A stretch of DNA of 64,000 bases from an uncultured bacterium (GTDB taxonomy: Bacteria; Bacillota_I; Bacilli_A; RFN20; CAG-826). The translations under genes were made by a program, and so were the position numbers. A model generated the notes under the pieces. It was not told the DNA's origin and did no database searches. It saw nothing but the letters and a program-made list of their open reading frames with translations. The DNA lies in assembly GCA_949299165.1 (NCBI GenBank), contig CASFZJ010000001.1, forward strand, positions 67,504-131,503, written 5' to 3'. Shown in pieces: positions 23,092 to 47,613 of the stretch; within the stretch, counting starts at the first letter, position 1, and each line of letters opens with the position of its first letter.

Positions 23092-24321
23092 TTAATTACC
23101 TCTTTTTGACATTACATCTTTTTCGTATTTTTTAACATCTTCGTAGAAATCATTTTTAATATTTTCTTCTTTTAAATATTCTTCATAAACTTCTTCCCAA
23201 GGAAGTTCTCTTATTTTTTCTTGAAGATAAAGAATTTTTGTATGATCTCCTTCTTTTTGTGCTTCGCTTAAGAGTTTCCAAGGTGTCAAGCTTGCTTTAA
23301 TAAGTGCTTTAATTAAATTTCTTGCACCAATTATTAAAGCATCAACTCTATTAATTGAACCATCAAAGAAATCCATAGCAAGATAAGTTCTATCAAAAGC
23401 ATCATTTTTAATTAATTCATCACAAACTTCTTGAAGTTCATCATTTAATTTCAATACATGATCGCTATCCCATCTAACTCCACGAGATGTATGTAAGGCG
23501 ATTTTAGGGAAGAATAGTAAAAGTGAAGAAATTTTATCACTAACATTTTCGGTTGGATGGAAATGCCCCATATCAAGCAAAGGAACAAGATTATTTTCCT
23601 TTGCATAACTTAAATAAAATTCAAAAGAACCAACTGTAAACGATTCGACACCAATCCCAAATACTTTAGACTCAACACTAACATCAACTAAATTTCGATC
23701 GAATTTATAGTCTAAAATTTTATCTAAAGAATTTTTAAGATTTTTTCTTAGTTCGATACGATTTGATGGACTTTCTTTAAGACCATCAGGTACCCATATA
23801 TTAACTAAAACTTTTTGATTTAACTCTCTTGCAATGTCTTCACTAGCTTTAATCGAATTCACGCAATGCTTAATCCAATAATTTCTAACGTTTTCATCAT
23901 ACGAGGATAAAGTTAAATTATCTTTTAACATTTCTGAAGCAAAACAAGTTGGATTAAAGTCGATTCCAATGTTATTTTCTTTAGCAAATTCAATCCACCT
24001 TCTAAAATTTTTCGCACTAATTTCGCTTCTATCAACTAAATCATCGCTTTCATAAATTGCGTGTAAATTCACTTTCTTTTTGCCCGGAATAAATTTTAAA
24101 GCTTCTTTTAAATCACTTGTTAATTCTTCAAAATTTCTTGCTTTAAATGGATAATTGCCAGTTGATTGAATTCCGCCAGTTAAAGATTCTGCTTTTAAAA
24201 ATCCATCAATATCATCAAGTTGCCAACATTGAATAGAAATTGGCATATTTCTAACTTTTTCTATCGCTTCATTTGGATTGATTCCAAATTCTTTAAATTT
24301 TTTAACAACTTCTTCTCTCAT
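23092..24321 (-). CDS. rhaA: L-rhamnose isomerase
   Basis: CWQ.DD, NLHAIY, DFNPTCF, NIWVPDG, ESKVFGIGVES, DMGHFHPTE, VRWDSDH, DFFD.SINR. Confidence 0.95.
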   Translation of the reverse strand: MREEVVKKFKEFGINPNEAIEKVRNMPISIQCWQLDDIDGFLKAESLTGGIQSTGNYPFKARNFEELTSDLKEALKFIPGKKKVNLHAIYESDDLVDRSEISAKNFRRWIEFAKENNIGIDFNPTCFASEMLKDNLTLSSYDENVRNYWIKHCVNSIKASEDIARELNQKVLVNIWVPDGLKESPSNRIELRKNLKNSLDKILDYKFDRNLVDVSVESKVFGIGVESFTVGSFEFYLSYAKENNLVPLLDMGHFHPTENVSDKISSLLLFFPKIALHTSRGVRWDSDHVLKLNDELQEVCDELIKNDAFDRTYLAMDFFDGSINRVDALIIGARNLIKALIKASLTPWKLLSEAQKEGDHTKILYLQEKIRELPWEEVYEEYLKEENIKNDFYEDVKKYEKDVMSKRGN

Positions 24322-24336
24322 TTTTTATTCCTCCAC

Positions 24337-25656
24337 TTACTCTATTTGAGAATAAATATTTCCTAAGGCACTAGCTTCAATTGGTAAAGCTATTACTTTT
24401 TTATTTGTTATTTTGCTTGTTAATTCATTTAAATAATCATTTTTCGCTCCGCCGCCAATAATATAAATATTTTTATATTTATTGTTAGTGAGTTCTTCAA
24501 TTTCTTTAATAGCATTTCTATATGCAAATGCTAACGAATGAAATGCCGAATTAAAAATATCGCATTCGTTTTCAATATGCATACTCTTTTCTTTAAAATA
24601 GTTAAAAATTTCATCTTTCATACTTTTTGGCGCTAAAAAACGCGCATCATTTACATCAAATGTTTCCTTAAAAGATGAATTTTTGGCTTTATTAATGATT
24701 TCTACGAAATCTAATGAATATTCTTTACTTAAACATTGAATAATCCAGAGACCCATAATATTTTTTTGAAAACGAACATAATCTGGCCCTAACTCATTAG
24801 AAAAATTATATTCTTTAGCTCTTTTTGAAGTTATAGGATTTTGAATTTTAGCTCCTAATAGCGACCAAGTTCCACTCGAAATATAAAGTGACTCTTTATC
24901 AAGATCTTTTAATGCTTCAACCGCACTCGCTGTATCATGAGTAGGTGCTAGTTTAACCATTATATTTGCACCGATTTCTTCTGCAACTTCTTTCTTCAAA
25001 TAACCGATAGAATACCCTGGTTTTTCAAGCTTTTTACTCAATAACCATGCAAAACCTAACTCTTTTCCTAAAAGCTCAGAAAATTTACGATTTTTAATAT
25101 CTAATAAATTTGTTGTTGAAGCGTTAGTAAGTTCATAAACTTTTTTACCTGTTAACAAAAAATTTAAATACTCAGGAATCATTAAAAATGTTTTAGCTTT
25201 TCTTAATCTCCCATCAACTTTGTCTTTGTAAAGTTGATAAATTGTATTAAATTTTTGGAACTGAGAACCGGTAATTTCATAAAGTTTATCTTCACTAATT
25301 ATTTCTCTAACTTCATCTATAATTTCACAAGTTCTATTATCTCGATAGGAATAAACAGGTCCAATAATTTCATCATTTTCATCGAGCAAAACATAATCGC
25401 AACCCCATGTATCAATAGCAACAGACTCAATTTTTGGAAATTTTTTAAAAGCTTCTTTGATTCCATTCTTAACTTCTTTAAATAAATGCTCTATGTCCCA
25501 ACATTTATGAGAATCGTTTACAATAAACCCATTTTTAAAACGATAAACTTCAATAAGTTTTTTAACTTTAGTGTTATAAGCTTCAACCTTCCCACCACTT
25601 GCACCAATATCGATCGCCAAATGAATTTTTTCTGGTATTTTTTCAATATTTTCCAT
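24337..25656 (-). CDS. rhaB: rhamnulokinase
   Basis: AIDIGASGG, IDTWGCDYVLLD, YRD.RT, FNTIYQL, HDTASA, SSGTWSL, KNIMGLW. Confidence 0.94.
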   Translation of the reverse strand: MENIEKIPEKIHLAIDIGASGGKVEAYNTKVKKLIEVYRFKNGFIVNDSHKCWDIEHLFKEVKNGIKEAFKKFPKIESVAIDTWGCDYVLLDENDEIIGPVYSYRDNRTCEIIDEVREIISEDKLYEITGSQFQKFNTIYQLYKDKVDGRLRKAKTFLMIPEYLNFLLTGKKVYELTNASTTNLLDIKNRKFSELLGKELGFAWLLSKKLEKPGYSIGYLKKEVAEEIGANIMVKLAPTHDTASAVEALKDLDKESLYISSGTWSLLGAKIQNPITSKRAKEYNFSNELGPDYVRFQKNIMGLWIIQCLSKEYSLDFVEIINKAKNSSFKETFDVNDARFLAPKSMKDEIFNYFKEKSMHIENECDIFNSAFHSLAFAYRNAIKEIEELTNNKYKNIYIIGGGAKNDYLNELTSKITNKKVIALPIEASALGNIYSQIE

Positions 25657-25719
25657 AAAAATTAAAAATTTTAAATCCTAGTTTTAAGTTTTCACGTTTT
25701 TTATTAAAGTTTTCACGGG

Positions 25720-28290
25720 TTACAAATCATATTCAAAATGATATTTACCACCTTTAATATTATCAATTTTTTTATCATTAATAATAAGTGTTGATAATGT
25801 ATTTGCTGGTAAAATAATATCAATTAAACACTTTTCATTTTCCTTTTTCCAACTAACAGAAACTTTACCATAAACACTATCATAACTGCCTTTGGCAAAA
25901 GTTATATTTCCACCAATTATTGGTTTAATTAAGAAACTATTTTCTTTAACGACATTAATACCAAGCATTCCATTAAAAAGCCATTCAACCATTGCGCCTT
26001 TAGAATAATGATTTAGCGAGGCGACGCCAGTTTTAGCAAGTGGTCCTTCCCAGGATTCCCAGACGGATGTTGTATCGTTTTTAGCCATAAATAACCAGCC
26101 AGGATTTTCCTCATTTTCTAAAAGTTTATAAGCGTATTCTTTATCGATTTTTGTTAAGACTTCAAGAATAAATGGTGTCGAAAGAAAACCAGTTCCGATT
26201 CTCCAAGAAAAATTATCAAGTGCTTTGATAAGTCTATCTTCCACTTTTTTAGTTGTCTCTTCATCAAGTAAATCCATATATAAAGGTCTAACTAATTTAG
26301 CTTGTCTATCTGTATCCAATTTAAAACGATCGAGTTTAACTAACTCTTGATAAGCGCGCTTTGTTCCTAAAATATATTCTTCTAACCATTTAGCATCTTT
26401 TTCTTTGCCTAAAATTGAAGCGATTTCTCTAACTTTAGATAAAGTATAATTTGTATAGGCTGTAGATTCTTCTGGATGAGGAACAGCTACATCTTTCCAA
26501 GATTGATCATAAATTTCTTTTGGTTCAAGCCGTTCACCATAAGATTGTCCTTTATTTACTAAATACTTTTTGATTTTATGTGTCATTTTAATTTTTGGAG
26601 CTAACACACCAGTTTTTCCACATCTTGAAATCATAAATTTTGCGTAGCGCATAATGTTATCATATGAATCTTGAAGAATTCTCTTGTCGCCATATTTTAA
26701 ATAATGCCTATAAGGTATTAAAACTCCAGCACATGCCCAGCCAACAGATCCATTTAAAAAATTCATATAAAAATCTTCCCCAACAGTTGGTACTATTTGG
26801 TAGAATTTTCCATTTTTAGTTTGGGTATCTTTTAAATCATTGATGTATTTTCTTGCAAAAGAAGCATAATTAACTAAATATGATGCTGAATTGAAGAAAA
26901 TTTGCGCATCTCCTGTCCATCCTGCTCTCTCACGTGTTGGACAATCAGTAGGCACATCAACCGAATTGTCTTTTAAAGACCAAAGAGTGTTGTGATAAAA
27001 CTTATTAATCAATTCATTTGAACATTCAAAAGTTGAAGAGTCTTCAAAAGCGTTATAGACACTAATTGCTTCAATTTCAAGTTTGTCAGAAATATTTTCA
27101 ATATCGCTTTCAATTTCAACAAACTTAAATCCGCCATAATAAAATTTAGGTTTATAGTCGTTTAATCCTTCTTTACATTCATAAACTATCATTTGAAGAG
27201 GTGTAACTTGCCATTTTGCATAGAGTTGAAAATTCTTTTGCGAAATTTCATTATTTTCACCAATCATCTCAGCGAACTTTAATTTAATAAAATTCCCTTG
27301 TTTTGCATTGATTTTAAACGAAACATACCCTGTTATCATTTGTGGAAATTCGATGATTAACTTGCCACTTGGTGAAATAAATTTTCTTTTAGGCACAAAT
27401 TTTTCCATTTCTTTAACTTGAAAATTATTTGAACATTTTAAATTTTTAAGAGATTCATTTGTTAATATGGCTTTATCTTTATAAGTAGGTACAAGATTTG
27501 CCTTTACTCTTTCGCCATCTCTTAAATCATTAATTCCTATAGGTCCATCATTTGACCAAGAAAATGAATCATCAGTTAAAATTTTTGTCACTTTTCCATT
27601 TTCATCATAGATTTCAAGTTGAGCAAAAACTTTAGTTTCTTTTCCATAGACATTTCGGTGTCCCCAAGCACCATTACTTCCTCTATACCATCCATCCCCA
27701 AGCACTAATTCAAGTGAATTTTTACCTTCTTTAATTAAACTAGTGACATCATATGTTTGATATTGAATTCTATGATGATAATTAGTTGATCCTGGATTTA
27801 ATACTGAATCGCCAGCTTTTTTGCCATTAATTGATGCTTCATAAACTCCAAGTGCGGTTGCATAAAGTCTAGCTCTTTTGACTTTAAAATTTATTTCAAA
27901 ATCTTTTTTAAAATAGTCGGCTGGATATCTTCTTTTTTTACTTGCCTTATAATTTCCTTTTATAAAATGAGCTTCAAATTCTTTATTATCTAATAAGCCA
28001 AACTCAAAATAAGCATGTTCGCTTTCTTCGCCTTTTTCTCCATTTTCATCAATTAAAGTAACAAAATATTCAACCCTATCTCTACTTTTAAAAGGATAAT
28101 CAAATATGTAATTCATTGATGAAGATCTCATCTCATCAGTTTCAATAAGATCTCCATCGTTTACTTTAAAAGATACGATATAGGCGCTTTGATTTTTATC
28201 GCCTTCATCGTTCCACGTTATACGAGGATTTTTGATATCTATTCCAAGTGGATTAGTTAAAAATTCACATTTTAAATTAACTGCTTTCAT
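25720..28290 (-). CDS. alpha-L-rhamnosidase (GH78)
   Basis: NPLGID..PRITW, LGDGWYRG, TDCPTRERAGWTGD, TGFLST, WESW, SLNHYS; CGG at 26530-26532 lies at a Trp position. Confidence 0.94.
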   Translation of the reverse strand: MKAVNLKCEFLTNPLGIDIKNPRITWNDEGDKNQSAYIVSFKVNDGDLIETDEMRSSSMNYIFDYPFKSRDRVEYFVTLIDENGEKGEESEHAYFEFGLLDNKEFEAHFIKGNYKASKKRRYPADYFKKDFEINFKVKRARLYATALGVYEASINGKKAGDSVLNPGSTNYHHRIQYQTYDVTSLIKEGKNSLELVLGDGWYRGSNGAWGHRNVYGKETKVFAQLEIYDENGKVTKILTDDSFSWSNDGPIGINDLRDGERVKANLVPTYKDKAILTNESLKNLKCSNNFQVKEMEKFVPKRKFISPSGKLIIEFPQMITGYVSFKINAKQGNFIKLKFAEMIGENNEISQKNFQLYAKWQVTPLQMIVYECKEGLNDYKPKFYYGGFKFVEIESDIENISDKLEIEAISVYNAFEDSSTFECSNELINKFYHNTLWSLKDNSVDVPTDCPTRERAGWTGDAQIFFNSASYLVNYASFARKYINDLKDTQTKNGKFYQIVPTVGEDFYMNFLNGSVGWACAGVLIPYRHYLKYGDKRILQDSYDNIMRYAKFMISRCGKTGVLAPKIKMTHKIKKYLVNKGQSYGERLEPKEIYDQSWKDVAVPHPEESTAYTNYTLSKVREIASILGKEKDAKWLEEYILGTKRAYQELVKLDRFKLDTDRQAKLVRPLYMDLLDEETTKKVEDRLIKALDNFSWRIGTGFLSTPFILEVLTKIDKEYAYKLLENEENPGWLFMAKNDTTSVWESWEGPLAKTGVASLNHYSKGAMVEWLFNGMLGINVVKENSFLIKPIIGGNITFAKGSYDSVYGKVSVSWKKENEKCLIDIILPANTLSTLIINDKKIDNIKGGKYHFEYDL

Positions 28291-28292
28291 GA

Positions 28293-30218
28293 TTATTTAC
28301 CTTCTTTAGAAAGAGCAAGTCTCTTTTGATAATCCTCAAAAATTGCATGACCTCTTTTTTCTTCTTCGTTCCAATACTCGTTAAGTTTTTCTTCTTTTTC
28401 TTTAACTTTTGCAAGGAATTTTTCTTTTTGAGCATCATTTAAAGCATTAAATTTAGCATCAGCTTTTTCTTTTCTTGCTTTCTCTTTAAGCTCTGCTTTT
28501 TCTTTTTGAAGTCTTTCTTTTTCCTTTTCTTTATTTTCTTTTACTTCTTTATTATGAAGATAGATTGCATATTCTCTTTCATAATCCAAACCTTTAGTTT
28601 CACATCTAACTTTAAGTTCTTCTTTAAAGTGTTCTTCTGCTTCTCTATTTTGAATTTCAACCATTTCCGCATTTCTAATTTCAGCAGGTTTCCATTCTTT
28701 TCCTTCTTTTTTGTAAGTTTCTTTTTCTCTTTCAACAATCTCTTTTTGTTTAAAATGAATTGTTTTTTCAGGATTTACAAAAAGAATAATTATTGCACAA
28801 ATTAAACCAGTAATAATTTCAATTCCTAAGAATGCCCAAATAATGAAAGTATTTACCGAATCATTTTGGATAAAAACAGTTGAACTTGTTCCATCAATGT
28901 TTTTAATAACTTTTTGAACTTCATTTGTGATCTCACCAGGAACATTTCCTGTAACTGGTTCAACATAACCCAGTCCTGTAATCATTAAATTAAAGAAACC
29001 AGTTCCAATTCCAATTGCGCTTGTTGAAATGATGTTATATAAAGCCATTGCACTACCATCACTTCTAAATCCCGTCTTCCATTCAAGTGAATCTAAGCAA
29101 TCAGCAAATAAAGCCATAAAAACATAGGCACATGGAAGTCCGCCAATATTTTTAATAAATTGACCTATCAAAACAATGACCATGTTATAAGGATTAATCA
29201 TACAAATTATGCCACCAAGTGCATATAGCAAAAACCCTACAACTGTAATGTTTCTTTTGCCGAACTTTTTAGCAAGTGGCCACACTGCAAAGATACCAAT
29301 TCCCATTGGCACGCCACCAATAACCGAAATCATTGTTTGAGTTGTGCCATCACTATACTTACCTAAAATATAGTTTGAATAATAAATGAGTCCTAAATTT
29401 TTAACTTGTGAACCAAAGCTATAGAAAACGAAATAAATCATTAAAAGAATAATATATTTATCTGTAAAAATAGCTTTTAATTGTAATTTATATGGGATTT
29501 TATTTTCTTCAACACCAACATTTTCTTCAGTAATTCTTTCTTTAGTATAGAAATATTCCATAAGAGTTAAAGGAAGAACTAAACAAGAAAAGATTGACAT
29601 TGCAACTATCCAAGCAGTTGAAGAAACGCCTATCATTGGTAAAACAACAAATGGAAAAACTAAAGCAACGATTATTCCTGAGGTACAAATTGTTGCAATT
29701 TGAGTAAAGACAGAAAGTTTACCTCTTTGAGTAACATTTCTTGTTGAAAGAGGCACCATCATGTTGTGCGCCATGCTATAAATTGAATAAGCAAACGAAT
29801 AAAAAAGATTATAAGTAAGCATTACCCAAATTGATTGAACTATTTCATTAGTTTGAGGAATTATAAAAAGCAAAATTCCAAAAATAGTCATGAGTGGAGC
29901 ACTAAGAAGTAACCAAGGACGGGCTTTTCCTTGTTTTGATTTAGTGTGATCAATTAAATAACCATACCCAACATCAACTACCGCATCGATAATTTTAGAA
30001 AGAATTGGGAATAAACCTAAAAAGAGCCCTCCCCACATGTAGCCAAGTCCTGCAACATCAAGATAGAATTGGTTAAGGTAACTTCCTAAAATTGCGTTGA
30101 GTAACAAGGCTCCGGCCGGTCCGACAAGATAACCAAGCCACGCTTCTTTCCCTTTAACGTTATAAGATTTTACCTTTGAATTGAAAAATCTTTTTCCAAG
30201 AGTCATTTTTACTTCCAT
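28293..30218 (-). CDS. GPH-family (MFS_2) glycoside:cation symporter with long charged C-tail
   Basis: About 12 TM; [21 protein letters not shown]; about 150-aa Lys/Glu-rich C-terminus. Confidence 0.88.
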
Positions 30219-30220
30219 AA

Positions 30221-32665
30221 TTATTTGTCCTTTCTAAGTAAAACTTTTAAACCTCTTAAATAATGACCATTTATAAATTCAACTAAAGCTAAAGCGACTT
30301 TGAAAGTAAGTTGACCACTTGAAGAAAAACAAAGTGAGCGTAAATTGTTATTTGGCATCATTTTTGCAACAAAATATCCGCTTTTCATCTCTCTTTCTCT
30401 TAGTGCTTTATCTTCTATTTTTTGAGCTTTTTTATATTTTGATAAACCAACATTAATCGTTGATTTTTTAAAGATTTTTCCAACAAATGAATCAAATTCG
30501 CCAATTGGAGTTTCAAGAGTATATGGCTTTTTATTGAAAACATATTTTGGAATTTTAAATTTTAATAATTCTTCAAAAACTTCATCAGGCACAATCGACT
30601 CATCAAGTTTTCCGTTCTTTTTATAAGAATAGGCATAATTAACTTTTTCTGAGTTTATATTTTCAATTACATTTCCTTTTATAAATACAACTTCTTTATA
30701 AATTTCTTCACGTGAATTTTTACTGATAATTATCGTATAATTTCCGTTTTCTAAGACAAAATCTTTTGTGTTTATATCGTAGACTTTAAGTGTATCGTAA
30801 GGAATTTCTAATACGAATTCTTTTGCTTCACCAATCTTTATTTCTTGTTTCTTAAAAGCTTTTAATTCTTTGATTGGTCGAATAATATTTGAATCAGGTT
30901 TAGAAACAAAAACTTCAATTACATCTTTTGCATCAAAATTACCAACATTTTTTACATTTAATTTAATAATGACTTTTCTATTTTCTAAGTCATTTTTAAT
31001 TTCAAAATTATCATAAGAAAATTTTGAATAAGATAATCCATATCCAAAAGGATAATTAACATCAATATTAAATGAATCATAATAGCGATAGCCTACAAAA
31101 AGTGATTCTTTATAAACTTCAATTGGTGTTTTTGTGAAATTTTCACCAAAAGGCACATCTTTATAATCTTTTATATATGTTTCATTCAATCTTCCTGATG
31201 GAGAAACTTCACCATATAAAATTTTATAATAGATTTCGCCAAGTGCTTCGCCACACATCGCAAAATTTACAATAGCACTAACCTCATTTTTAAAAGGTAA
31301 AGTTACAACTGACCCATTGAAATTAGTAACAATTATTTTTTTATTTAATTTAATTAATTCATTTAATAAATGAATTTGATTTTTAGGTAAATTTATCGAG
31401 TCGCGATCAAAGCCTTCTGATTCAATAAAATCATTTTGAGCCACTAAAAATACAATTTTTTCGTAGTTTTTAGCTTTTTCTAATGCTTCATTTTCTAATT
31501 TTTCATTAGTTTTATTTTCTAAAATTTCATAACCTTGTGCATAATCAAATTCGAGTTCATTTACTTTTTCAAAATATTCATCAATATGAACTAATCTATA
31601 TGGATTTAATAACGATGATCCGCTTCCTTGATATTTATTTTCTTTAAAAAGTTCACCTACAAAAAGAACTTTCTCATTCTTTTTGAGTGGTAAAACATTA
31701 TCTTCGTTTTTAAGTAAAGTTACACCTTCAAGCCCTGCTTCAAGTGCAATTTTATAATTTTCTTCAAAAATAGATTTATCGTATTTATTTTTGTTTTCAG
31801 TTTTATTTAAAAGTTCTAAAACTCTTCTTACTGAATTATTTAAGGTTTCTTCTTTTATTTTTCCACTTTTTACCCCATCAATAACAAGCTTAACATTTTC
31901 TTCGACTTGGCCTGGCATTTCAAGGTCATTTCCATTATTTAAAGCTTCATCTCTATGTACAATTCCACCCCAATCTGTGACATTAACCCCGCAAAACCCC
32001 AATTTTTTTCTTAAAAGTTCATTTTGAGTATAATTATTTTCGCTTGAATGAATTCCATTGATTTGATTATAAGAAGACATAATTGCATCTGTTTCGCCAT
32101 CTTTTACTATCATTTCAAAAGGTTTTAAATAAACCTCATTTAATGTTCTATCATCAATTATTGAATTACCAACAAAACGATATTTTTCATTATTATTACA
32201 AGCAAAATGTTTTGGAGTAGCCGCTATGTTTTCAGTTTGTAAACCTCTAACAAAGCTTGTTCCTAACTTACCTGCCAAAAAAGGATCTTCACTATAATAT
32301 TCAAAATTTCTTCCACATAAAGGATTACGTTTAATATTAACAGAAGGACCTAGAAGCATATCTATTTCGTAATATGCAGCTTCTTTCCCAATAGATTCAC
32401 CAACTTTAAATAAAATTTCTTCATTAAAAGTTGATGCTAAAACAGTTCCTGTTGGGAAAACAGTTGCAGGCAAAGAATTGCTTATCCCCGTTAAATTATC
32501 GCTTTTTGGGTCGGTTATTCTAATTCCGTTTGGCCCATCAGACATTTTTAAAGCTCTTATTCTATAACTTGGATAAGAAATTAATGACATATTTTTATTA
32601 CCACTTAATAGTTTAGCTTTCTCTTCTAGACTCATCTTTTTGATTACTTCATCAATATTAATCAT
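30221..32665 (-). CDS. GH3 glycoside hydrolase
   Basis: [34 protein letters not shown], nucleophile TDWG, ESEGFDR. Confidence 0.94.
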
Positions 32666-32677
32666 AATTCACCCCAC

Positions 32678-32691
32678 TGAAAGCGCTTACA
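32678..32691. promoter_or_regulatory. catabolite-responsive element (cre, CcpA-type)
   Basis: TGAAAGCGCTTACA matches consensus TGWAANCGNTNWCA; it abuts a -10-like TATTAT (minus strand, 32692-32697) upstream of the GH3-rha operon. Confidence 0.72.
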
Positions 32692-32759
32692 ATAATATTA
32701 AAAAGGAAATAAATCAATATTTCTTGTCATTTTGTTCAAATATTTATACTATTGTTCTA

Positions 32760-33947
32760 ATGAAAGACATTGATTTAGATTTTTTTATCAAAAATATTGC
32801 TGATTTATGTGCTGTGCCAATCAGATATTTTGTTGATGGTTCATTCAAAAACATCTACTCAACAGTTGAAATTAAAATTGATCCTTTTGAATTCGTAAAA
32901 GATGAAATTTTTAAATTAGAAAAACATATCGATTATTTTACAAGTAAGAACAATTTTTATTATGTCATCGTTCAAAATGAAAACACAAAAATAATAATCG
33001 GACCTTCATTTTTTAACATCCCTGAAGATTACACATTAAATCGAATATGTTTTGAATTTAATTTAAATAGAGAAGACTCAATTTCATTTAAAAATACGAT
33101 AAAAACTATAAATCGCTTTCCACTTGAAACACTTCTACAAATTGCTTGTTCTTTAAATTACATTTTAAATGACGAAAAAATTAAATTAGGTGATCTTTTA
33201 ATGAAAGATTTAAAAGTTCCTACTCAACAAATAGAGCAAAAAGAACAAAATGAGAATGAAAAAATAGTATTGCCTCACAACACAATGAAAATTGAAAATG
33301 AACTTTTAAGCATTGTTAAATCTGGTGATTTAAATAAACTTAAATTTTATATTGAAAATATTCCTTCATTTAGAACAAATTCAATTGTTGAAAATCAAAT
33401 AAGACAATCAAAAGACTTATTTATTACAACTATTGCTTTAATTACACGTGCTGCAATAAGTGAGGGCGTTAATATCGAAGAAGCTTTAACTTTAAGCGAC
33501 AATTTTATTCAAAAAATAGAAAACTCTCGTACCATGAAAGAATTAAACGAAATCATCCTTAGCGCTTTAACAGAGTTTACAACAAAAGTTTCTTACCTAA
33601 AAAACGTACAAACTCAAACTGAATTTACCCTAAAATTATCCAATTTCATAATTCATAATATCTCGCGAAAATTGACGATTGATGACTTAGTTAATAATTT
33701 TTATATCTCAAAAACTTCATTATGTGAAAAAGTTAAAAACAACAGTGGCTTAACAGTTAACGAATTTATTAACACCACTAAAATTGGTGTGGCTAAAGAT
33801 TTATTATCAAATACAACAAACTCAATACTTTCGATTTCTGATTACTTAGGCTTTAGTTCTCAAAACCATTTTGTGAAAGTGTTCAAGAAATATGTTGGCA
33901 CAACTCCTTCTGAATACAGAAAAAATCAAAATTTAAAAAATAGTTGA
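32760..33947 (+). CDS. AraC-family transcriptional regulator
   Basis: C-terminal double HTH (ISDYLGFSSQNHFVKVFKKYVGTTPSEYR); divergent from the GH3-rha operon; start moved from 32640 to 32760 by comparison with the paralog and to remove the overlap. Confidence 0.92.
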   Translation: MKDIDLDFFIKNIADLCAVPIRYFVDGSFKNIYSTVEIKIDPFEFVKDEIFKLEKHIDYFTSKNNFYYVIVQNENTKIIIGPSFFNIPEDYTLNRICFEFNLNREDSISFKNTIKTINRFPLETLLQIACSLNYILNDEKIKLGDLLMKDLKVPTQQIEQKEQNENEKIVLPHNTMKIENELLSIVKSGDLNKLKFYIENIPSFRTNSIVENQIRQSKDLFITTIALITRAAISEGVNIEEALTLSDNFIQKIENSRTMKELNEIILSALTEFTTKVSYLKNVQTQTEFTLKLSNFIIHNISRKLTIDDLVNNFYISKTSLCEKVKNNSGLTVNEFINTTKIGVAKDLLSNTTNSILSISDYLGFSSQNHFVKVFKKYVGTTPSEYRKNQNLKNS

Positions 33948-33981
33948 GCTAACCATGGTTTTTGAGAAAAATCGAATTTAA

Positions 33982-35337
33982 TTAATTTATTTTAAAAGAT
34001 AAATAATAAGGGATAGTTAATATATTTTGTGTCTCTCCTAAATTTGAAGAGGTTAGTTTAACTAATCTATCGACATTGTACTTTGGATTTGAAAGCACTT
34101 CCTTTGCTGATTTAGCATTTCCGTTTTTTGCTTTTACCTCTAATAAGGTAATAAACGAGTTAACTTTAGAAACAAAATCAATTTTTAATCCACTTCTTTT
34201 CGAAAAATAATAAAAATCCTTTTTGCTTTTTATTAAAGCATCAGCAACGAGACTTTCATAAATCATTCCTTTGCCAAAAGATAAATCATTTGTGAGTATT
34301 TTAAACTTAATATCACTATCAAGCATTCCAATCGTCAAACCAATATCTGTTAAATAAACTTTAAAATCATTTTCGATCTTAAATGCACTTAGTGGTTCCT
34401 CAAAAGTCGTTATATTGTGGCACAATTTAATTAAGCCATATTGTTCAAGCCAAGTTAGTGCGCTCTTATATGTATAATTTTTATTTTTGTTTCCAACCAT
34501 GCTGTAAGTAAACTTCTTATTTTCTTTAGAAAGTTGATTAGGAAGGGAAATAAATACATCTAAAATTCTTGCTTTTTCTAATTCATTACGGACAATTTTT
34601 CCATCTTTACTTAAATGTGTTTCAAAGTCATCTTTATAGTTTTGAATAATATTTTTCTGATAGTGATCAACTTCTGAAAATCTTTTGTTCTAACATAAGC
34701 TTCTACCACTTCTGGTAAGCCACCTACACATATATAAATTCTAATCCAGTTTAAAAATAGTTCATGTAAATAAGAAGGAATTTCTTTTTTTCATTAAAAC
34801 ATTCCTTTATAATTTCTATCAAATTTAAAGAAACATTATTGGCCCGTAAAAATTCTTCAAAATCCATCGGCATCATTGTTATTACTTCTTCAGAGCCAAC
34901 GCAATCCCTCTACTATTTTCGCTTGTATCATTATAACCACTTATTCCCAAAAAAGATCCAGTACAAATAACATCAAATCTTTCATCTCCATTAAAATATT
35001 TAAGTGAAGATCTTGCATTTAAACAATCTTGAATTTCGTCAAAAATTAAAATTGTTTTGTGAGGCACCATCTTCGAATTTTTAATTATCTTGTTTTCATC
35101 AGGAAGAGCTGTTATCATTGCTGAAATATAATCGATGTTAAAATTACCAGCAAATATTTTTGCTAAATCTTTATCTTTACGAAAATCCAAAAAGAATGCA
35201 TTTTCATATTTTTCTTTAGCAAATTCTTTTGCGGAAACTGTCTTACCGATTTGCCTTAGACCCTTAATAATCAATGGTTTTTTGTTTTCTCTTGCGTACC
35301 ATTTATTTAGATATTCGCTAATTTTTCTTTTAAACAT
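33982..35337 (-). pseudogene. AAA_14 ATPase + DUF4143 protein with three -1 frameshifts
   Basis: Walker A GLRQIGKT and Walker B FDEIQ; PMDFEEFL(W)A, VGGLPEVV, DIG, LEVK. A continuous ~450-codon frame needs +1 nt at about 34901, in the T run 34785-34791 and in the A run 34677-34680. Confidence 0.85.
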
Positions 35338-35399
35338 ATTAATTTATCTAAATTATATCGATAATAATCGTATTTTTAGATACATTTAAAAGATTAAAC

Positions 35400-35580
35400 C
35401 AGAATTTTTCAAGCGAGTTTTTCCGAAAAGTCAGAATTTTTCAAGCGAGTTATTAAGAAATGTCAGAATTTTTCAAGCGAGTTCTTCCAAAAAATCAGAA
35501 TTTTCGGGTGAGTTTTTCAGAAAAATCAGAGTTTTTCAAGCAACTTTTATCAAATATGAAAATTCACAAGGTCAGAATTT
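35400..35580. repeat. tandem array of ~32-bp units (core CAGAATTTTTCAAGCGAGTT)
   Basis: Unit starts at 35400, 35432, 35464, 35496, 35527, plus a partial at 35573. Confidence 0.9.
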
Positions 35581-35589
35581 TTAGTTACT

Positions 35590-35671
35590 TTGCATATTTT
35601 TACAAGAAAAAAATAAGTTAAGTTGCATATAATTACAACTTAAAAAAGGAGAAAGTTGCATATAATTACAA
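35590..35671. repeat. three copies of TTGCATATWWTTACAA at 33-bp period
   Basis: Starts at 35590, 35623, 35656; imperfect palindrome. Confidence 0.85.
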
Positions 35672-35803
35672 GATTGCGAAGGATTTAACTGCCGATAAGA
35701 CAACCCACATTTTCTTCTTGAGCCCGTCTATCAAAGACCGCAATCATTGCAATCTTTTTTAATCTGGTTAAAAATTATTCTGCTTCTAGAAAGACTTTCC
35801 AAT

Positions 35804-35998
35804 TTAAAAAGAATATTAATTAATAAATCTGCTTCATTAGTTAAAATTCTAGATATGTATAACAATTCAAACTATTTAACCGTGGGTGAGTTAAGTCCAA
35901 ACTTTTTGAATAAAATTCAAAATTATCAAAAATAAATATTGGCGCTTCTAAGCGTTCATAATTTTAATGAGATTTTTTTAAAATATAACGAATTTAAA
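35804..35998 (+). pseudogene. 3' remnant of an HD/alarmone-hydrolase-like gene (paralog of 54384..55043)
   Basis: KSASLVKILDMYNNSNYLT identical to the 54384 protein; TAA at 35933-35935 where the paralog has TAC; similarity continues past the stop (FLKYNEF); 5' part absent. Confidence 0.85.
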
Positions 35999-36043
35999 TA
36001 TAGTAAATTTAATGTGAGATTTGCAGGGTTTTTGAAAAAACAC

Positions 36044-38617
36044 CTATTCATTAAATGAAAGTTCATTAATTCCCGGCACAAGTTCACAATGAAAATCTTT
36101 AAACATAAACTCAGCTTTTGTGTTTGGAGGTATTGATATTTTAAAATTGATTTTTTTATTTTCTCTTTCCCAAGACGCACTCACTCTTCCATATAAAGAA
36201 TCATAATATCCTTTTGCAAATTTAAAAGTTCCACCAATTACTGGTTCAATTTTAAAAGAGTTTTCAGCATTAACATTTATACCAAGTACAGCTTTAAAAA
36301 GGAACTCTACCATTGCGCCTTTTGAATAGTGATTTAAGGAAGATAAACCATAATTTTGTTGTACGCCTTCCCAACTTTCCCAAATTGATCCAGTCGAATT
36401 TTTTGCCATATAAAGCCAACCTGGTTTTTCTTCATTCTCAAGCAATTTATAAGCGTATTCTGGATCGATATCTTTTAAAACAAAAAGTATAAATGGGGTT
36501 GATAAAAATCCTGTTCCAATTCTCCAAGAAAAATCATTTAAGTCTACGATTAATTTATTTTGAGCAAATTTCTTTTGCTCTTCATCAAGTAAATTCATAT
36601 ATAAAGGGCGAACAAGTAAGGCTTGTCTTTTGGTATCAAGAGAAAATTCCTTTAAAGTTATTAGTTCTTGATATGCTTCTCTTGTTCCCTTTATATATTT
36701 ATCTATTTTTTGCGCTTCTTCTTCATGTCCTAAAACTCGTTCAATTTCCTGAAAACAAGTTAAAACGTAATTTGTATAAGCAGTTGAAACTTCTGGATGA
36801 GGAAAAATTACATCTTTCCAATCTTGAGGATAAATATCATTTGGCTCAGCCCATTCTCCATACGATTGATCTCTTCTAACTAAATATTTTTTATTTTTAT
36901 GAGATATTTTGATGTGTTTTGATATTGGTCCACCCCGTTTTCCAATTCTTTTAATCATAAAATTGATATATTTTTTCATTGGCCCATATATTGATTCAAG
37001 ATATTTTTTATCGCCATACAATTTATAAAATCTATATGGTATTAAGATTCCAGCATCAGCCCACCCAACTGAACCATTTAATGTATGCATGAAAAATGGC
37101 TCATTAACTGTTGGAACAATGTGAGAAAAACGACCATCTTTGAATTGTCGATCAATTAAGTCATTAATATGTTTTCTAATAAATGGTGCATAATCCATTA
37201 AATAAGCTGCACTATTAAAGAAAATTTGTGAATCCCCAGTCCAACCAGCTCTTTCGCGAGTAGGACAATCAGTTGGCACATCAACCGAATTTGATTTTAA
37301 GGAATTTATCGTATTTTTAAAGAAAATATTAACTAAATTATTTGAACATTCAAAATTAGAAATTAGCGATAAATCACTATAAATTACGATTTGTTTAAAA
37401 TCAGTCAATTCATAAGGCACATCACTTTCTATAAGAGCATATTTAAATCCACCATAATAAAATTTTGACTTATATTCATTAATTCCATCTTTAAAAATAT
37501 AGTTAATTTCTTGTTTTGGTGTATCACCATATTTTGTATGATCTTGAATATTTAGTAATGAAAATTCCCCATCATTATCGATATATTCACCCATCACAAT
37601 ACGGATTTTATCGCCTTTTTTACCTTTTAATTTAAAAGCAATATATCCACTTAAATTGTTTTCAAAAAGTAAAACATGTTTCTTTTTAGGTGTGATGATT
37701 TCTTTTATTGGATAATGTTCTTCTTTTTCTTTCACAAAATAGTTATTTGAAGCTTTCAAATTATATTTTTTGTGGATTTCTTTGGCTCTTCCTTTATAGG
37801 TAGGAACAAGATTAGCGTCAAAAAATTCACCATCTTTAATATCATTAAAAATAATAGGACCATCGTTCGACCACGAGAACTTATCATCACTTAAAACTTC
37901 AAAAAGAAGCTTATCACCGCTAAAAAATTCACATTGCAGGAAAGCTTTACTTACTTTTCCAAAAGTATTTGGTTTTCCACTCCCACCATTATTTCCACGA
38001 TACCACCCATCACCAAGTATAATTTTTATCTCGTTTCTACCTTCTTTTAATAGAGGTAAAATGTCGTATGTTTGATATTGAACCCTTTTACGATAATCAG
38101 TCGAACCTGGTGCCAAAACAAAATCACCGACTCTCTTATCGTTAATAGAAAGTTCATATAACCCACACGCACTTGCATAAGCTCTTGCTTTTGTAATTTT
38201 ATTTAAGTCTTCAATAGAAAATTCTTTTTTAAAATAATCGGCTGGGTATCTTGTTTTTCTTTTAACTTTATAATTGCCGCTTATCCATTTTGCATGAAAA
38301 TCAGTCTCGTTCAAAAGACCAATTTCAAACGAATTTTCTTCGCTAAAAACATGAGTGTCATCATTTATTATTGCTTCAATTTTATATTTAATTATGTCCC
38401 TACTTTTAAAGGGGTTCGTAAAAATATAATTCATCGAACTAGATTCAACAAGCTCACTAACATAATTATTTTTATTAATTGAATAATGAATTTTGAAAGC
38501 TTTTTGTAAAAGCTTTTCATCTCCTTCAGATTTATAATTCCAAGTAATTCTAGGACTTAAAATATCGATGCCGATTGGATTAGTTAAATACTCACATTTT
38601 ACATTTTCAATTTTCAT
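36044..38617 (-). CDS. alpha-L-rhamnosidase (GH78), second paralog
   Basis: Collinear with 25720..28290; TDCPTRERAGWTGD, GEWAEP, SLNHYSKG; start moved to the ATG at 38617 (MKIENVKCEYL). Confidence 0.94.
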   Translation of the reverse strand: MKIENVKCEYLTNPIGIDILSPRITWNYKSEGDEKLLQKAFKIHYSINKNNYVSELVESSSMNYIFTNPFKSRDIIKYKIEAIINDDTHVFSEENSFEIGLLNETDFHAKWISGNYKVKRKTRYPADYFKKEFSIEDLNKITKARAYASACGLYELSINDKRVGDFVLAPGSTDYRKRVQYQTYDILPLLKEGRNEIKIILGDGWYRGNNGGSGKPNTFGKVSKAFLQCEFFSGDKLLFEVLSDDKFSWSNDGPIIFNDIKDGEFFDANLVPTYKGRAKEIHKKYNLKASNNYFVKEKEEHYPIKEIITPKKKHVLLFENNLSGYIAFKLKGKKGDKIRIVMGEYIDNDGEFSLLNIQDHTKYGDTPKQEINYIFKDGINEYKSKFYYGGFKYALIESDVPYELTDFKQIVIYSDLSLISNFECSNNLVNIFFKNTINSLKSNSVDVPTDCPTRERAGWTGDSQIFFNSAAYLMDYAPFIRKHINDLIDRQFKDGRFSHIVPTVNEPFFMHTLNGSVGWADAGILIPYRFYKLYGDKKYLESIYGPMKKYINFMIKRIGKRGGPISKHIKISHKNKKYLVRRDQSYGEWAEPNDIYPQDWKDVIFPHPEVSTAYTNYVLTCFQEIERVLGHEEEAQKIDKYIKGTREAYQELITLKEFSLDTKRQALLVRPLYMNLLDEEQKKFAQNKLIVDLNDFSWRIGTGFLSTPFILFVLKDIDPEYAYKLLENEEKPGWLYMAKNSTGSIWESWEGVQQNYGLSSLNHYSKGAMVEFLFKAVLGINVNAENSFKIEPVIGGTFKFAKGYYDSLYGRVSASWERENKKINFKISIPPNTKAEFMFKDFHCELVPGINELSFNE

Positions 38618-38759
38618 AATTTTCACCTTTAAAATGTCAAATTGTTTACAAAAAGCCTGCAAAAACCATATATTTTTGAAAATTTTTCCAGGAATTTTGA
38701 AAAAACCAGTACTTTTTTAAATTTTCTTCGGAAATTTTTAATATTTCCGTATTTTTAAA

Positions 38760-40217: not shown

Positions 40218-41531
40218 TTATTTCTCGAATAAAATGCTATTTAATACAGACTCAAGATATTCCTGTCTTCCGCTTTGAACATTTATATCGTCATGTTTTA
40301 AAGCATATTCACTTAATTCTTCAAAATTAGTGGATTTTTGCGAGATTTTTTCTCCAATTCCGGTTTGATAACTTCTATATCTTTCTTCTTTAAATTCATC
40401 AATCCTGCCATCTTCAATCATTTTAACGGCTTTTCTTAAACCTAAAGCAAAAGCATCCATTCCTGCAATATAGGCAAGAAGAATATCTTCTAAAGTGTTA
40501 GATTGGCGCCTTGTTTTAGCATCAAAATTTAATCCGCCATTTGTAAATCCGCCTTCTTTTAAAACTTCATACATGCATAAAGTTGTATCGTAAACATTTG
40601 TTGGGAATTGATCGGTATCCCGTCCAAGAAGCATATCACCTTGGTTAGCATCAATACTGCCAAACACTCCATTGACTCTTGCTGTTCTTAATTCATGTTC
40701 AAATGTATGACCTGCAAGTGTTGCGTGATTTGCTTCGATATTTAATCTAAAATCATCCATTAAATTATAAGTTCTAAGGAAATTACAAGCGGTAGCAGCA
40801 TCAAAGTCATATTGATGTTTTGTTGGTTCTTTTGGTTTTGGTTCAATATAAAAATCGCCTTTATAACCTTTACTTCTTGCATAATCTCTTGCCATTTGCA
40901 TAAAATAACCAAGATTATCAAGTTCAACCTTCATATTTGTATTTAATAAGGTGTCATAACCTTCTCTTCCACCCCAAAATACATAGCCGGTTCCACCAAG
41001 TTTAATATTTGCATCTAAACAAGCTTTGACCTTAGCGGCACTTAAAGCAAAAACATCAGCGTTAGGTGAAGTTGCGGCACCAGCCATAAAAACTTTATCG
41101 CCAAAATTATTAGCTGTACACCAGAGAAGTTTCTTATTATGTTTCTTTTGTAAAACTGCTAAATAATCAACAATTTCTTTAAAATTGTCAAAGAATTCTT
41201 TTAAATTTTTGCCTTTTGGAGCAACATCAACATCATGGAAACAATAATAATCTATTGATAATTTATCCATTAATTCAAATGCGACATCCGCTCTTTTTTT
41301 ATAAAGTTTCATTGGTTCAGTTTCGCCCCAACTTTTATCTTCAGTTGGTCCACCAAACATATCAACTCCACAATAATCTAAAGTGTGCCAATAAGACATA
41401 GCAAACTTTAGATGTTCTCTCATCTTTTTACCTAAAATAACTTCATCAGGATTGTAATATTTAAAGGAAAATGGATCTTTTGAGTCTGGTCCTTTATAAA
41501 CGACTTTTTCAATTTCATTATACTTTTTCAT
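40218..41531 (-). CDS. xylA: xylose isomerase, class II
   Basis: [49 protein letters not shown](W)[13 protein letters not shown]. Confidence 0.97.
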
Positions 41532-41543
41532 ATTTGAAACTCC

Positions 41544-43097
41544 TTATTTTATAAATTCATAAAGATAAATTGAGTTGCTTTTTGCAACAAAATTTATAAT
41601 TGTTTTACCAAAATCCCTGCAAAAGTCCACTTTTTCTTTTTTTAATGTAGAGTTTTCACGGATTTTCACGATTTCTTCATCACTTAATAATTTCTTTTCA
41701 CGAAGTTTCTTCCGTTCTTTCACAGGATTAACATGGTCATCATCAATACGATATAAATTAACTTCTTTATATTCTCCTTCGAGAGTTAATTTAATCTTTT
41801 CCTCGTTATTTTTATCAATATCAAAATCTTGATTAAAGACTAAAACTTGGTAACCATTATTCGTTTTATAAATATGGTATTCGAACTCTTTTTCTTCGTT
41901 TTTATCTAAAGTAATTTCATCATGTGATAAGTTATTTAAAATCTTGAACGCATAGAAAACTGGTTTAGGAATACCAACATTATTCACAATTCCAAATCCG
42001 CCAAAGAATGGTTTATTAATAATAAACGATTCTTCAAAGATATCACTTCCACACCAATAGGAAGCGCCTGCAATTGAATCATCCATTTCAAGAGCATATT
42101 TTAAAGCAAAAGTTGCTGCAACTTTATCGTCGTGATATGGTGAACAATAAACCGCCATTGTCGACCATTCAGTTATATATAAAGGATAATTTGGAATTTG
42201 AGCATGTGCTTCTTTATCCATTTTCTTAAATAAAGACTTAGGCCAATTTACATAATTTGATTTTTTATAGAAGAATTTTTGGTAAGTTTTACCAATATCC
42301 CATTTTTCTTTTTTAGCTTGATGTGCAATTTTCATGATATTTAATGAATCTTTAAATTCAAAAACATTTCCAAAAGCATCACCAACATAATGGTGAGTAG
42401 TAACAAAATCAGGTTTACAACCATTATTTTCACCAAAAGTTGTAAAATCTTTTAACCATTTACATTTACTAGTTGAAGGTCCACCAATTTCAAGTTTTGG
42501 ATCGACATCTTTTAAGGCACAATATGCTGTTTTATAAAGTTTAAAATAATCTTTTTGTTTTCCATTAAAGAAAATTCCTAAATCTGGCTCATTCCAAACT
42601 TCAAATTTCCGTGTTTCGATTTCTTCTTTACCATAAGTTTCAACTAAAAATTCACCAAAATCATGAATGAATTTATAGTATTTGTCCCAACTTTTTGGTA
42701 AAGAAATATTGTTTTTATATCTCAAACCATATTTTTTCTTTTTAGCTAATGCTTCTGGCATAAAAGAAAGTTCTACAAATGGTTTAAAACCACAAAATAA
42801 AACATTATCCAAAACTTTCTTTACTTGTAAGAAATTGTATTCATAAATTGATCTAGAAAATGGCATCATCTTAAAATATGAATAATCTGATAATCTTTGA
42901 ATGATGAGCATATCATCATCAAATAATCCATGGAATCTTAAATATCTAATCCCGGTTTCTTCATGAATGAGCTTAAGTTGCTCTACCATATCTTTTCTTA
43001 GCATGAACACAGCATGACAATTTCCAATACAAAATTGCCATTTGTCATTTCTCTTTTTAATAGGTTTACTTTCTAAATTATTTAATACTATTTCCAT
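41544..43097 (-). CDS. beta-xylosidase (GH39)
   Basis: YLRFHGLFDDD, KPFVELSFMP, acid/base WNEP, GGPST, nucleophile YITEWS. Confidence 0.93.
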   Translation of the reverse strand: MEIVLNNLESKPIKKRNDKWQFCIGNCHAVFMLRKDMVEQLKLIHEETGIRYLRFHGLFDDDMLIIQRLSDYSYFKMMPFSRSIYEYNFLQVKKVLDNVLFCGFKPFVELSFMPEALAKKKKYGLRYKNNISLPKSWDKYYKFIHDFGEFLVETYGKEEIETRKFEVWNEPDLGIFFNGKQKDYFKLYKTAYCALKDVDPKLEIGGPSTSKCKWLKDFTTFGENNGCKPDFVTTHHYVGDAFGNVFEFKDSLNIMKIAHQAKKEKWDIGKTYQKFFYKKSNYVNWPKSLFKKMDKEAHAQIPNYPLYITEWSTMAVYCSPYHDDKVAATFALKYALEMDDSIAGASYWCGSDIFEESFIINKPFFGGFGIVNNVGIPKPVFYAFKILNNLSHDEITLDKNEEKEFEYHIYKTNNGYQVLVFNQDFDIDKNNEEKIKLTLEGEYKEVNLYRIDDDHVNPVKERKKLREKKLLSDEEIVKIRENSTLKKEKVDFCRDFGKTIINFVAKSNSIYLYEFIK

Positions 43098-46311: not shown

Positions 46312-47613
46312 TTATTCCTCTAACTTCTTGCCACTTGTGGCAATAATATCTTTATAATAATAGGCACTATCTTTAAAATATCTTTCTTCATTTTTATAAT
46401 CAACATAGACTAATCCAAAGCGAGGTTCATATCCTTCAGCCCGTTCAAAATTATCCATAAATGACCAATATGAATAGCCCAATACTGGCACACCTTCATT
46501 AATTGCTCTTTCTAAATTAACTAGATATTCTTTAATATATCTAATTCTTTCTTCATCATGGACTTTACCTTCTTTTAACTCTTCTTTTAAAGGTAATCCA
46601 TTTTCAGTAATCATAAGCGGCATATGATATCTCTCGTAAACAAAACGAGTTAACCAATATAATCCTTTACCATTATTTTCCCATCCAAGCATATTAGTCC
46701 ATTCATAGGTTGGTTTTTCTTTAGAAGTATAATCAACAAAAGGGGCGTAGTTATTTAAACCAATAAAATCTAAAGGTTCATAACATTCTTCACAAGTTTT
46801 CTTTGAAACTCGATAAATTCCATAAACTTTTGCAGGCTTTTTAGCCAAAATTGGGTCTAAAAACCAAGTATTTGCCAGTATTCCACTTGGTGTTTCAAAA
46901 GTAATTTGTCTTGCTTTTTCAATGTCTTCTTTCGATTCGGTTTCAGGAACTTTTGGACTTGTTGCAAAACTTAAACCAACAAGAGGCTTTTCTTTTGCAT
47001 ATTTTCTAATTGCTCTTGTAACAGCGGCATTAGCATGGAAAAAGTTACGACTAATTTTAGAAATTAATAATGGGTTTTTAATAAATGGGGCATGAACTCC
47101 TTGAACATATCCATTAAATAAGAAACAAGATGGTTCGTTAAAAGTAATCCAATATTTAACTCTATCACTGAGTTTTTCTACTACAGCTTTAGCATAAATC
47201 TCAAAATATTTAACAACTTTTCTTGTTCTCCATCCGCCCATTTCATATAGCCAAAAAGGCATGTCCCAATGGTATAAAGTAACAATTGGCTCAATTCCAT
47301 TAGCGAGTAATTCATCGACTAATTTTGAATAAAACTCAAGTCCTCTTTCATTTATTTCATCATATAGAGGCATAATTCGCGACATATTGATTGAAAAACG
47401 GTACGACTTAACTCCTAACTCCTTTAAAAGAGCAACATCTTTTTTATAAAGATGGTAGTGATCACAAGCGATTTTTGCATTCTCATTATTTTTAATTTTA
47501 CCTTCAGGCAAACAATCCCGGATGCTTAAACATTTTCCATCTTCATCATATGCTCCTTCAATTTGGGTTGCCGAAGTTGAAACACCCCACAAAAAATCTT
47601 TTGGAAATGACAT
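46312..47613 (-). CDS. beta-glucosidase (GH1)
   Basis: FLWGVSTSATQIEG, DHYH, YRFS, TLYHWD, TFNEP, ITENG, DNFE(W)AEGY..RFG. Confidence 0.95.
   Translation of the reverse strand: MSFPKDFLWGVSTSATQIEGAYDEDGKCLSIRDCLPEGKIKNNENAKIACDHYHLYKKDVALLKELGVKSYRFSINMSRIMPLYDEINERGLEFYSKLVDELLANGIEPIVTLYHWDMPFWLYEMGGWRTRKVVKYFEIYAKAVVEKLSDRVKYWITFNEPSCFLFNGYVQGVHAPFIKNPLLISKISRNFFHANAAVTRAIRKYAKEKPLVGLSFATSPKVPETESKEDIEKARQITFETPSGILANTWFLDPILAKKPAKVYGIYRVSKKTCEECYEPLDFIGLNNYAPFVDYTSKEKPTYEWTNMLGWENNGKGLYWLTRFVYERYHMPLMITENGLPLKEELKEGKVHDEERIRYIKEYLVNLERAINEGVPVLGYSYWSFMDNFERAEGYEPRFGLVYVDYKNEERYFKDSAYYYKDIIATSGKKLEE

Follow-up and report, generated by a model that had tools for sequence, protein, structure and literature searches.

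The arginine (Arg) codon CGG has been predicted to encode tryptophan (Trp) in three bacterial clades, one of which consists of uncultured Bacilli of the GTDB order RFN20 (Shulgina and Eddy 2021, eLife 10:e71402; PMC8629427). For the genus UBA4855, the source table gives a GC content of 0.27–0.30, a tRNA set of ACG 1, GCG 0, UCG 0, CCG 1 and CCA 1, and a usage of 0.9–2.5 CGG and 48–61 UGG per 10,000 Pfam-aligned codons. The sister species in the same table are without tRNA(CCG) and use hardly any CGG (PMC8629427). Candidatus Onthovivens is the later name of the CGG-to-Trp Bacilli genus (PMC13092985). The published CGG-to-Trp cases are computational only, and ambiguous translation is undetectable by computation (PMC8629427). 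The present study deals with a window of 64,000 nucleotides, that is, the whole stretch of DNA that was analysed (contig CASFZJ010000001.1, assembly GCA_949299165.1), and with two genes in it for paralogous GH78 alpha-L-rhamnosidases, here called A and B. At one conserved column of the two proteins, A has CGG and B has TGG. Judged from the sequences of this genome and its relatives, CGG very probably encodes Trp in this organism, and the probability of this reading is put at about 0.93.

The window genome (G000) is composed of 1,432,224 bp in 39 contigs, with 30.0% GC and 98.4% completeness. It agrees with the RFN20/UBA4855 recoding in the codon and its new meaning, in GC content (0.30 here), in the arginine-box tRNA set and in a CGA that is still Arg. 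Likewise, its tRNA(CCG) has G73 and is without A20, and only a subset of the genus bears this tRNA. Both sources are uncultured gut metagenome-assembled genomes (MAGs) labelled Bacilli or Mollicutes. The source organism is a member of the uncultured gut Bacilli and most likely belongs to Candidatus Onthovivens (GTDB UBA4855, order RFN20). Considering this feature-by-feature match, the CGG-to-Trp change is therefore a rediscovery, from raw sequence, of the code already known since 2021 and no new phenomenon. Two other cases, Anaerococcus (CGG-to-Trp) and Absconditabacteria (CGA/CGG-to-Trp), share the new meaning, a low GC content and a tRNA(CCG) that shows identity features for Trp, but they belong to other phyla or classes. 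CGG is far rarer in Anaerococcus (0.15–0.8 per 10,000). In Absconditabacteria, CGA is reassigned as well and UGA means Gly, whereas in the window genome CGA faces Arg in alignments and TGA is the end of genes under translation table 11.

Both rhamnosidase paralogs are, by their sequences, predicted to be normal GH78 enzymes. Each contains the N-terminal Ig, Bac_rhamnosid_N, concanavalin-like, (alpha/alpha)6 catalytic and C-terminal domains, all above the Pfam cut-off, and the PDB matches (3w5m, 6gsz, and 6i60) have E-values from 1e-87 to 1e-98. The paralogs are 55% identical over 854 residues. In their alignment, R587 of A (CGG) faces W604 of B (TGG). The plus strand at 26522-26548 is ttggttcaagccgttcaccataagattg, and its reverse complement reads CAA TCT TAT GGT GAA CGG CTT GAA CCA. 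The reverse complement of 36843-36869 reads CAA TCG TAT GGA GAA TGG GCT GAG CCA. The initial annotation had pointed to CGG and TGG at one and the same QSYGE-x-xEP column, and this is borne out by the in-frame codons and by the alignment of the paralogs. The solved GH78 enzymes (Streptomyces avermitilis SaRha78A 3w5m, 6gsz, and 6i60) have the same five domains and, in the (alpha/alpha)6 domain, a conserved YG(D/E)W motif, though their identity to the paralogs is only moderate. The Trp of this motif is present in B as TGG. In A, it is present only if CGG is Trp; the motif is then canonical, with the peptide GQSYGEWLEPK, whereas table 11 puts Arg at the motif Trp.

A single T/C difference in a MAG could come from an error in sequencing or assembly, with TGG as the true codon. 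However, contigs of two other samples (L101 and L102) encode the identical A protein and also have CGG at codon 587, and the stretch with paralog A is present in four metagenome runs from two samples. Because the codon is kept in the independent contigs and in the four runs, CGG at this position is no assembly error. The consistent pattern of all 185 CGG codons in the genome described below also argues against such an error, which is hardly credible as an explanation.

The residue facing codon 587 in solved GH78 structures is Trp (YGDWL in 3w5m and WADWLDP in 6gsz), and the column is TGG in seven homologs from other bacteria. Eight GH78 loci found by a search of genome contigs were used for this column. 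It had been considered beforehand that the column might be variable in GH78 homologs and often Arg. The family alignment gives another picture: among 22 sequences, composed of orthologs from the genus and outgroups, the codon is TGG in 19 and CGG in three, and no other Arg codon occurs. The three CGG codons belong to paralog A of the window and to the paralog-B-type genes of two congeners (G019 and G075), and all three genomes carry tRNA(CCG). Throughout the same alignment, CGG of genus members is found at Trp columns only and never at Arg-majority columns, where the genus uses AGA (168), CGT (36), CGA (19), AGG (15), and CGC (8). On the other hand, the outgroups with the standard code use CGG at Arg/Lys columns.

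Taken alone, a single column is weak evidence, and the CGG of paralog A could be a genuine Trp-to-Arg change in a decaying or function-shifted copy, which would tell nothing about the code. Duplicated genes often diverge. In addition, a tally of paralogs within the genome (all-against-all blastp with CGG masked) gave Trp at only three of seven CGG sites, with Arg, Lys, Asn, and Leu at one site each. Against such a change, paralog A is an intact gene within a rhamnose operon that is itself complete. Arg should also arrive as AGA, which is 49 times commoner in this genome, but among the Arg codons only CGG entered the column, three times and in two gene lineages. The genome-wide pattern of CGG goes beyond the decay of one gene as well, so that a real substitution is very improbable. 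The paralog tally of seven sites was too small, and therefore whole genomes of relatives were compared.

In 1084 long non-overlapping open reading frames (ORFs) of the window genome, covering 86% of it, CGG occurs 185 times and TGG 2455 times. The frequency of CGG is 0.45 per 1000 codons against 22.2 for AGA. In-frame TGA is zero by construction, since the ORF list was made with table 11. The reference with the standard code (G057) is a complete 1.01 Mb genome of the same order with an ordinary 77-nt tRNA-Arg(CCG). Proteins of the window genome were aligned to it with CGG masked, and a site was taken as conserved when at least five of ten flanking residues were identical. At the 24 conserved sites, CGG faced Trp 18 times, Tyr three times, and Leu, Ile, and Ala once each; Arg was never found. 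The control codons behaved as expected from their standard meanings, with TGG facing Trp at 72%, AGA facing Arg at 71%, and CGA facing Arg at 61%. By this alignment, CGA still behaves as an Arg codon. Over all 53 aligned sites, CGG faced Trp 26 times and Arg once, while the other five Arg codons faced Trp at 11 of 6886 sites (0.16%), which gives a binomial P of ~2e-58 for CGG. With empirical emission profiles for each amino acid, Trp is favoured over Arg by an ln likelihood ratio of about 157 and over the runner-up (Phe or Tyr) by one of 67–73.

The exchange of CGG and TGG among close relatives, which the initial annotation had named as the way to check its claim, was counted against G075, a congener with the same tRNA. 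The comparison covered 1.08 Mb of that genome and 237,632 aligned codons. The 88 CGG codons of the window genome faced TGG in 68 cases, CGG in seven, and AGA in two. In the opposite direction, 47 CGG codons of G075 faced TGG in 34 cases, CGG in seven, and an Arg codon in none. In total, 102 CGG/TGG exchanges and seven shared CGG sites stand against two CGG/Arg pairs. At the sequence level, CGG and TGG thus behave as freely exchanging synonyms. A pairing with another residue was seen in three related tRNA-bearing genomes, G001 (L184), G067 (L182), and G069 (L181), where one CGG near trpS, probably a single site, faces GCG (Ala) in the window genome.

ARAGORN predicted 43 tRNAs on all 39 contigs. 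The Arg anticodons among them are ACG, UCU, and CCU only, each in a 77-nt tRNA with A20. Neither tRNA(UCG) nor an Arg-type tRNA(CCG) was found by ARAGORN in the 39 contigs of this 98.4% complete assembly. The sole tRNA with anticodon CCG lies outside the window (G000:C30:7845-7918, minus strand) and has 74 nt. Its acceptor stem is AGGGGCU/AGCCCCU with A1:U72, followed by G73. The D-loop AAUGGUA places U20 where the Arg element A20 would be, and the anticodon stem of 5 bp closes with U31.G39 on the loop CUCCGAA. Compared with tRNA-Trp(CCA) of the reference genome, six of seven acceptor pairs are shared and the D-loop is identical. By the published criteria, a Trp acceptor has G73 and lacks A20, and A/G1:U72 is taken as supporting evidence (PMC8629427, Methods). 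G73, the lack of A20, and A1:U72 are all found in the tRNA(CCG), which by these elements is of the Trp type. Overall identity was dropped as a classifier because tRNA(CCG) has 47–53 of 74 positions in common with several isotypes and tRNA-Trp is not singled out. Global similarity being uninformative, identity elements and architecture were therefore used. One trpS gene for tryptophanyl-tRNA synthetase (TrpRS) is present in the genome (G000:C10:15555-16553), and a second TrpRS dedicated to tRNA(CCG) was looked for in it and not found. The recoding of CGG to Trp proposed initially is hence supported by the genome-wide tallies, by a Trp-type tRNA(CCG), and by the lack of an Arg-type decoder of CGG in the assembly.

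In the proposed mechanism, tRNA-Arg(ACG), presumably modified to ICG, would decode CGU, CGC, and CGA, and the UCU and CCU tRNAs would decode AGA and AGG. None of these three would pair with CGG by standard rules. CGG would instead be read by the dedicated 74-nt tRNA(CCG) of Trp-type build, and the single TrpRS would charge both tRNA-Trp(CCA) and tRNA(CCG) with Trp. CGG and TGG would then be synonyms that change into each other by a single T/C transition. This would be the reason why paralog A can have CGG and paralog B TGG at the same Trp.

Some points weigh against this assignment. A minority of the CGG sites aligned with the reference face non-aromatic residues (Leu, Ile, Ala, Glu, Gly, Lys, and Thr), and one of 53 faces Arg, although the scatter of TGG is similar. 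There is a small residual chance that an Arg-type decoder of CGG lies in the unassembled part of the genome. The tRNA(CCG) has G36 in place of A36 of the Trp anticodon, and A36 is an identity element for the TrpRS of E. coli, so that efficient charging of tRNA(CCG) by TrpRS is assumed. We infer both this charging and the insertion of Trp at CGG in vivo. A search for RNA-seq runs found none, and only DNA metagenomes hold the stretch. These RNA data would be needed to exclude directly that CGG is edited to UGG in the mRNA by C-to-U conversion, with the code itself standard, which would give an equal pattern at the DNA level. In that case, however, there would be no role for the Trp-type tRNA(CCG), which is conserved across 21 or more congeners, and the loss of every Arg-type decoder of CGG would be unexplained. 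To our knowledge, site-specific C-to-U editing at about 185 mRNA sites is without precedent in bacteria. Editing is thus barely conceivable here.

The share of CGG among the Trp codons of the window genome is 7.0%. For ordinary synonymous pairs with C or T at the first position, the corresponding values are 9.2% for CTG/(CTG+TTG) and 10.4% for CTA/(CTA+TTA). This suggests that the captured CGG is nearly at mutational equilibrium in this species. According to the 2021 account, the CGA/CGG cases have not yet rebounded (PMC8629427). The published share of CGG among Trp codons in UBA4855 is about 2–4% against about 7% here over all ORFs, two measures which are not strictly comparable. These frequencies bear on a further alternative, in which CGG is ambiguous, mostly Trp and in part Arg, through mischarging of tRNA(CCG) by arginyl-tRNA synthetase (ArgRS) or through the near-cognate tRNA-Arg(ICG). 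The anticodon of tRNA(CCG) retains the Arg-like C35 and G36, both of which are recognised by ArgRS. The share of CGG is also lower in the 137 ORFs that show the highest conservation with the reference genome (4.6%) than in the rest (7.3%), and this would fit a small cost. On the other hand, tRNA(CCG) is without A20, the main ArgRS element, and CGG stands at the catalytic-domain Trp of six enzymes in the window alone. Since the share of 7.0% is near that of ordinary C/T first-position pairs (9–10%), any cost of CGG must be small. Ambiguous decoding is therefore regarded as improbable, and Trp as the meaning of CGG is preferred.

Eleven in-frame CGG codons are present in the long ORFs of the window. 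For six of them a solved structure was available for comparison, and the residue in the structure is Trp at all six (Table 1). With CGG read as Trp, a peptide of the GH1 beta-glucosidase would be DNFEWAEGYEPR. Each rhamnosidase paralog has one CGG, and the two stand at different Trp columns. The ORF of paralog B extends over 36044..38662 and has 872 aa when started from TTG at 38662. However, the ATG at 38617, 15 codons downstream, is the likelier start because the alignment with paralog A opens at MKIENVKCEY (residue 16 of the TTG-started ORF).

Table 1. Positions in the window of the rhamnosidase genes, their neighbours, and the CGG and TGG codons discussed.
Feature	Position	Strand	Remarks
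GH78 alpha-L-rhamnosidase, paralog A	25720..28290	-	ORF of 856 aa; five GH78 Pfam domains, Bac_rhamnosid6H E 4e-76; PDB homologs 3w5m, 6i60, 6gsz
GH78 alpha-L-rhamnosidase, paralog B	36044..38617	-	long ORF; five GH78 Pfam domains
CGG, codon 587 of paralog A	26530..26532	-	Trp position of QSYGE-W-xEP, called invariant
TGG (Trp), codon 604 of paralog B	36851..36853	-	faces the CGG of paralog A in the pairwise alignment
CGG, codon 576 of paralog B (GK-x-GG)	36935..36937	-	loop column, W in 13/22 GH78 homologs; Thr in paralog A
CGG in xylose isomerase	40620..40622	-	W of PDB 1a0e
CGG in GH39 beta-xylosidase, codon 462	41712..41714	-	W of PDB 6yyh
CGG in GH39 beta-xylosidase, codon 163	42609..42611	-	just before FEVWNEP; W of PDB 6yyh (TQWPFEIWNEP)
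CGG, codon 391 of GH1 beta-glucosidase (DNFE-W-AEGY)	46441..46443	-	W in both halves of PDB 8in1
CGG, codon 32 of GH1 beta-glucosidase (SI-W-D)	47518..47520	-	W in both halves of PDB 8in1
Operon for rhamnose utilisation, including paralog A	23092..32665	-	Pfam; gene order also on independent contigs
RhaA (L-rhamnose isomerase)	23092-24321	-	Pfam; rhamnose operon
FGGY kinase	24337-25656	-	Pfam; rhamnose operon
MFS_2 transporter	28293-30218	-	Pfam; rhamnose operon
GH3	30221-32665	-	Pfam; rhamnose operon
DUF4143 ORF	33982-34500	-	short
AAA_14 ORF	34882-35337	-	short

Reading this genome with table 11, the default of standard annotation pipelines, turns about 185 Trp residues into Arg, including residues in the catalytic domains of the xylose isomerase, GH1, GH39, and GH78 enzymes. 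Therefore, the proteins look damaged, and predictions of structure and function are misled. Expression of such genes in E. coli would yield W-to-R mutants. The case is a well-supported further example of a sense-to-sense reassignment, a rare kind of change in bacteria, and its main value lies in annotation. CGG/TGG swaps between paralogs or close relatives can serve as a simple diagnostic that needs no database. The additions to the 2021 work are modest, namely the free exchange of CGG and TGG at the codon level, the near-equilibrium frequency of CGG, and a distribution of the tRNA in the genus that is much wider than reported then, though patchy.

For the last point, a signature of tRNA(CCG) made of the D-arm plus CUCCGAA was searched in 48 genera of the family. 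Of the roughly 54 genomes sampled from the genus, 21 have it, so that at least 21 tRNA-bearing species are counted here against four in UBA4855 in 2021. The other 47 genera (401 genomes) gave no genuine match to the signature. The single match outside the genus (G380, two mismatches) was not recognised as a tRNA by ARAGORN and was rejected as a chance match. The sequences of 24 further tRNA(CCG) genes from the genus (23 congeners, two genes in G015) are all 74 nt long with G73 and without A20. U72 is present in 21 of them, and G1:C72 is present in G068, in G078, and in the second copy of G015. The two genes of G015 are located at G015:C8:8110-8300 (L177) and G015:C31:382-455 (L003). The second of the two is divergent, with G1:C72 and the loop GUCCGAA, and still has 74 nt, G73, and no A20.

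On a tree of TrpRS, the bearers of the tRNA are clustered (seven changes against 10.3 for shuffles), and at least five changes are forced. One genome without a tRNA hit (G032) is nested among the carriers and yet has CGG facing TGG of the window genome. Part of the apparent absence of tRNA(CCG) is likely due to MAG incompleteness. The genes flanking tRNA(CCG) are conserved only among the window genome, G030, G015, and G001, and not in seven other congeners. Taken together, the patchy occurrence of the tRNA, the minimum of five changes, the limited synteny, the second copy in G015, the near-equilibrium share of CGG, and its fast turnover between congeners led us to consider that the recoding was not one clean capture at an early stage but went along with a recoding tRNA that was repeatedly lost, regained, or passed on laterally within the genus. 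This history is possible but rather doubtful. If true, the codon-capture model could be followed in this genus as in a natural time series. The neighbourhood of the tRNA also differs in the position of tRNA-Leu(CAA), which lies about 410 nt downstream of tRNA(CCG) in G022 and G036 and, in the window genome, on the contig of tRNA(CCG) at a distance of 7.5 kb.

The ortholog of paralog A in G025 is 78% identical to the protein in the window, equal to the 78% of that in G075. The TrpRS of G025 is only 70% identical to that of the window genome, against 88% for G075, and G025 shows no tRNA(CCG). These values hint that the rhamnose operon moved between species of the genus. The AAA_14 and DUF4143 ORFs lie between the two sugar operons and, by their sequences, resemble the two parts of a single AAA+ ATPase gene that was disrupted.

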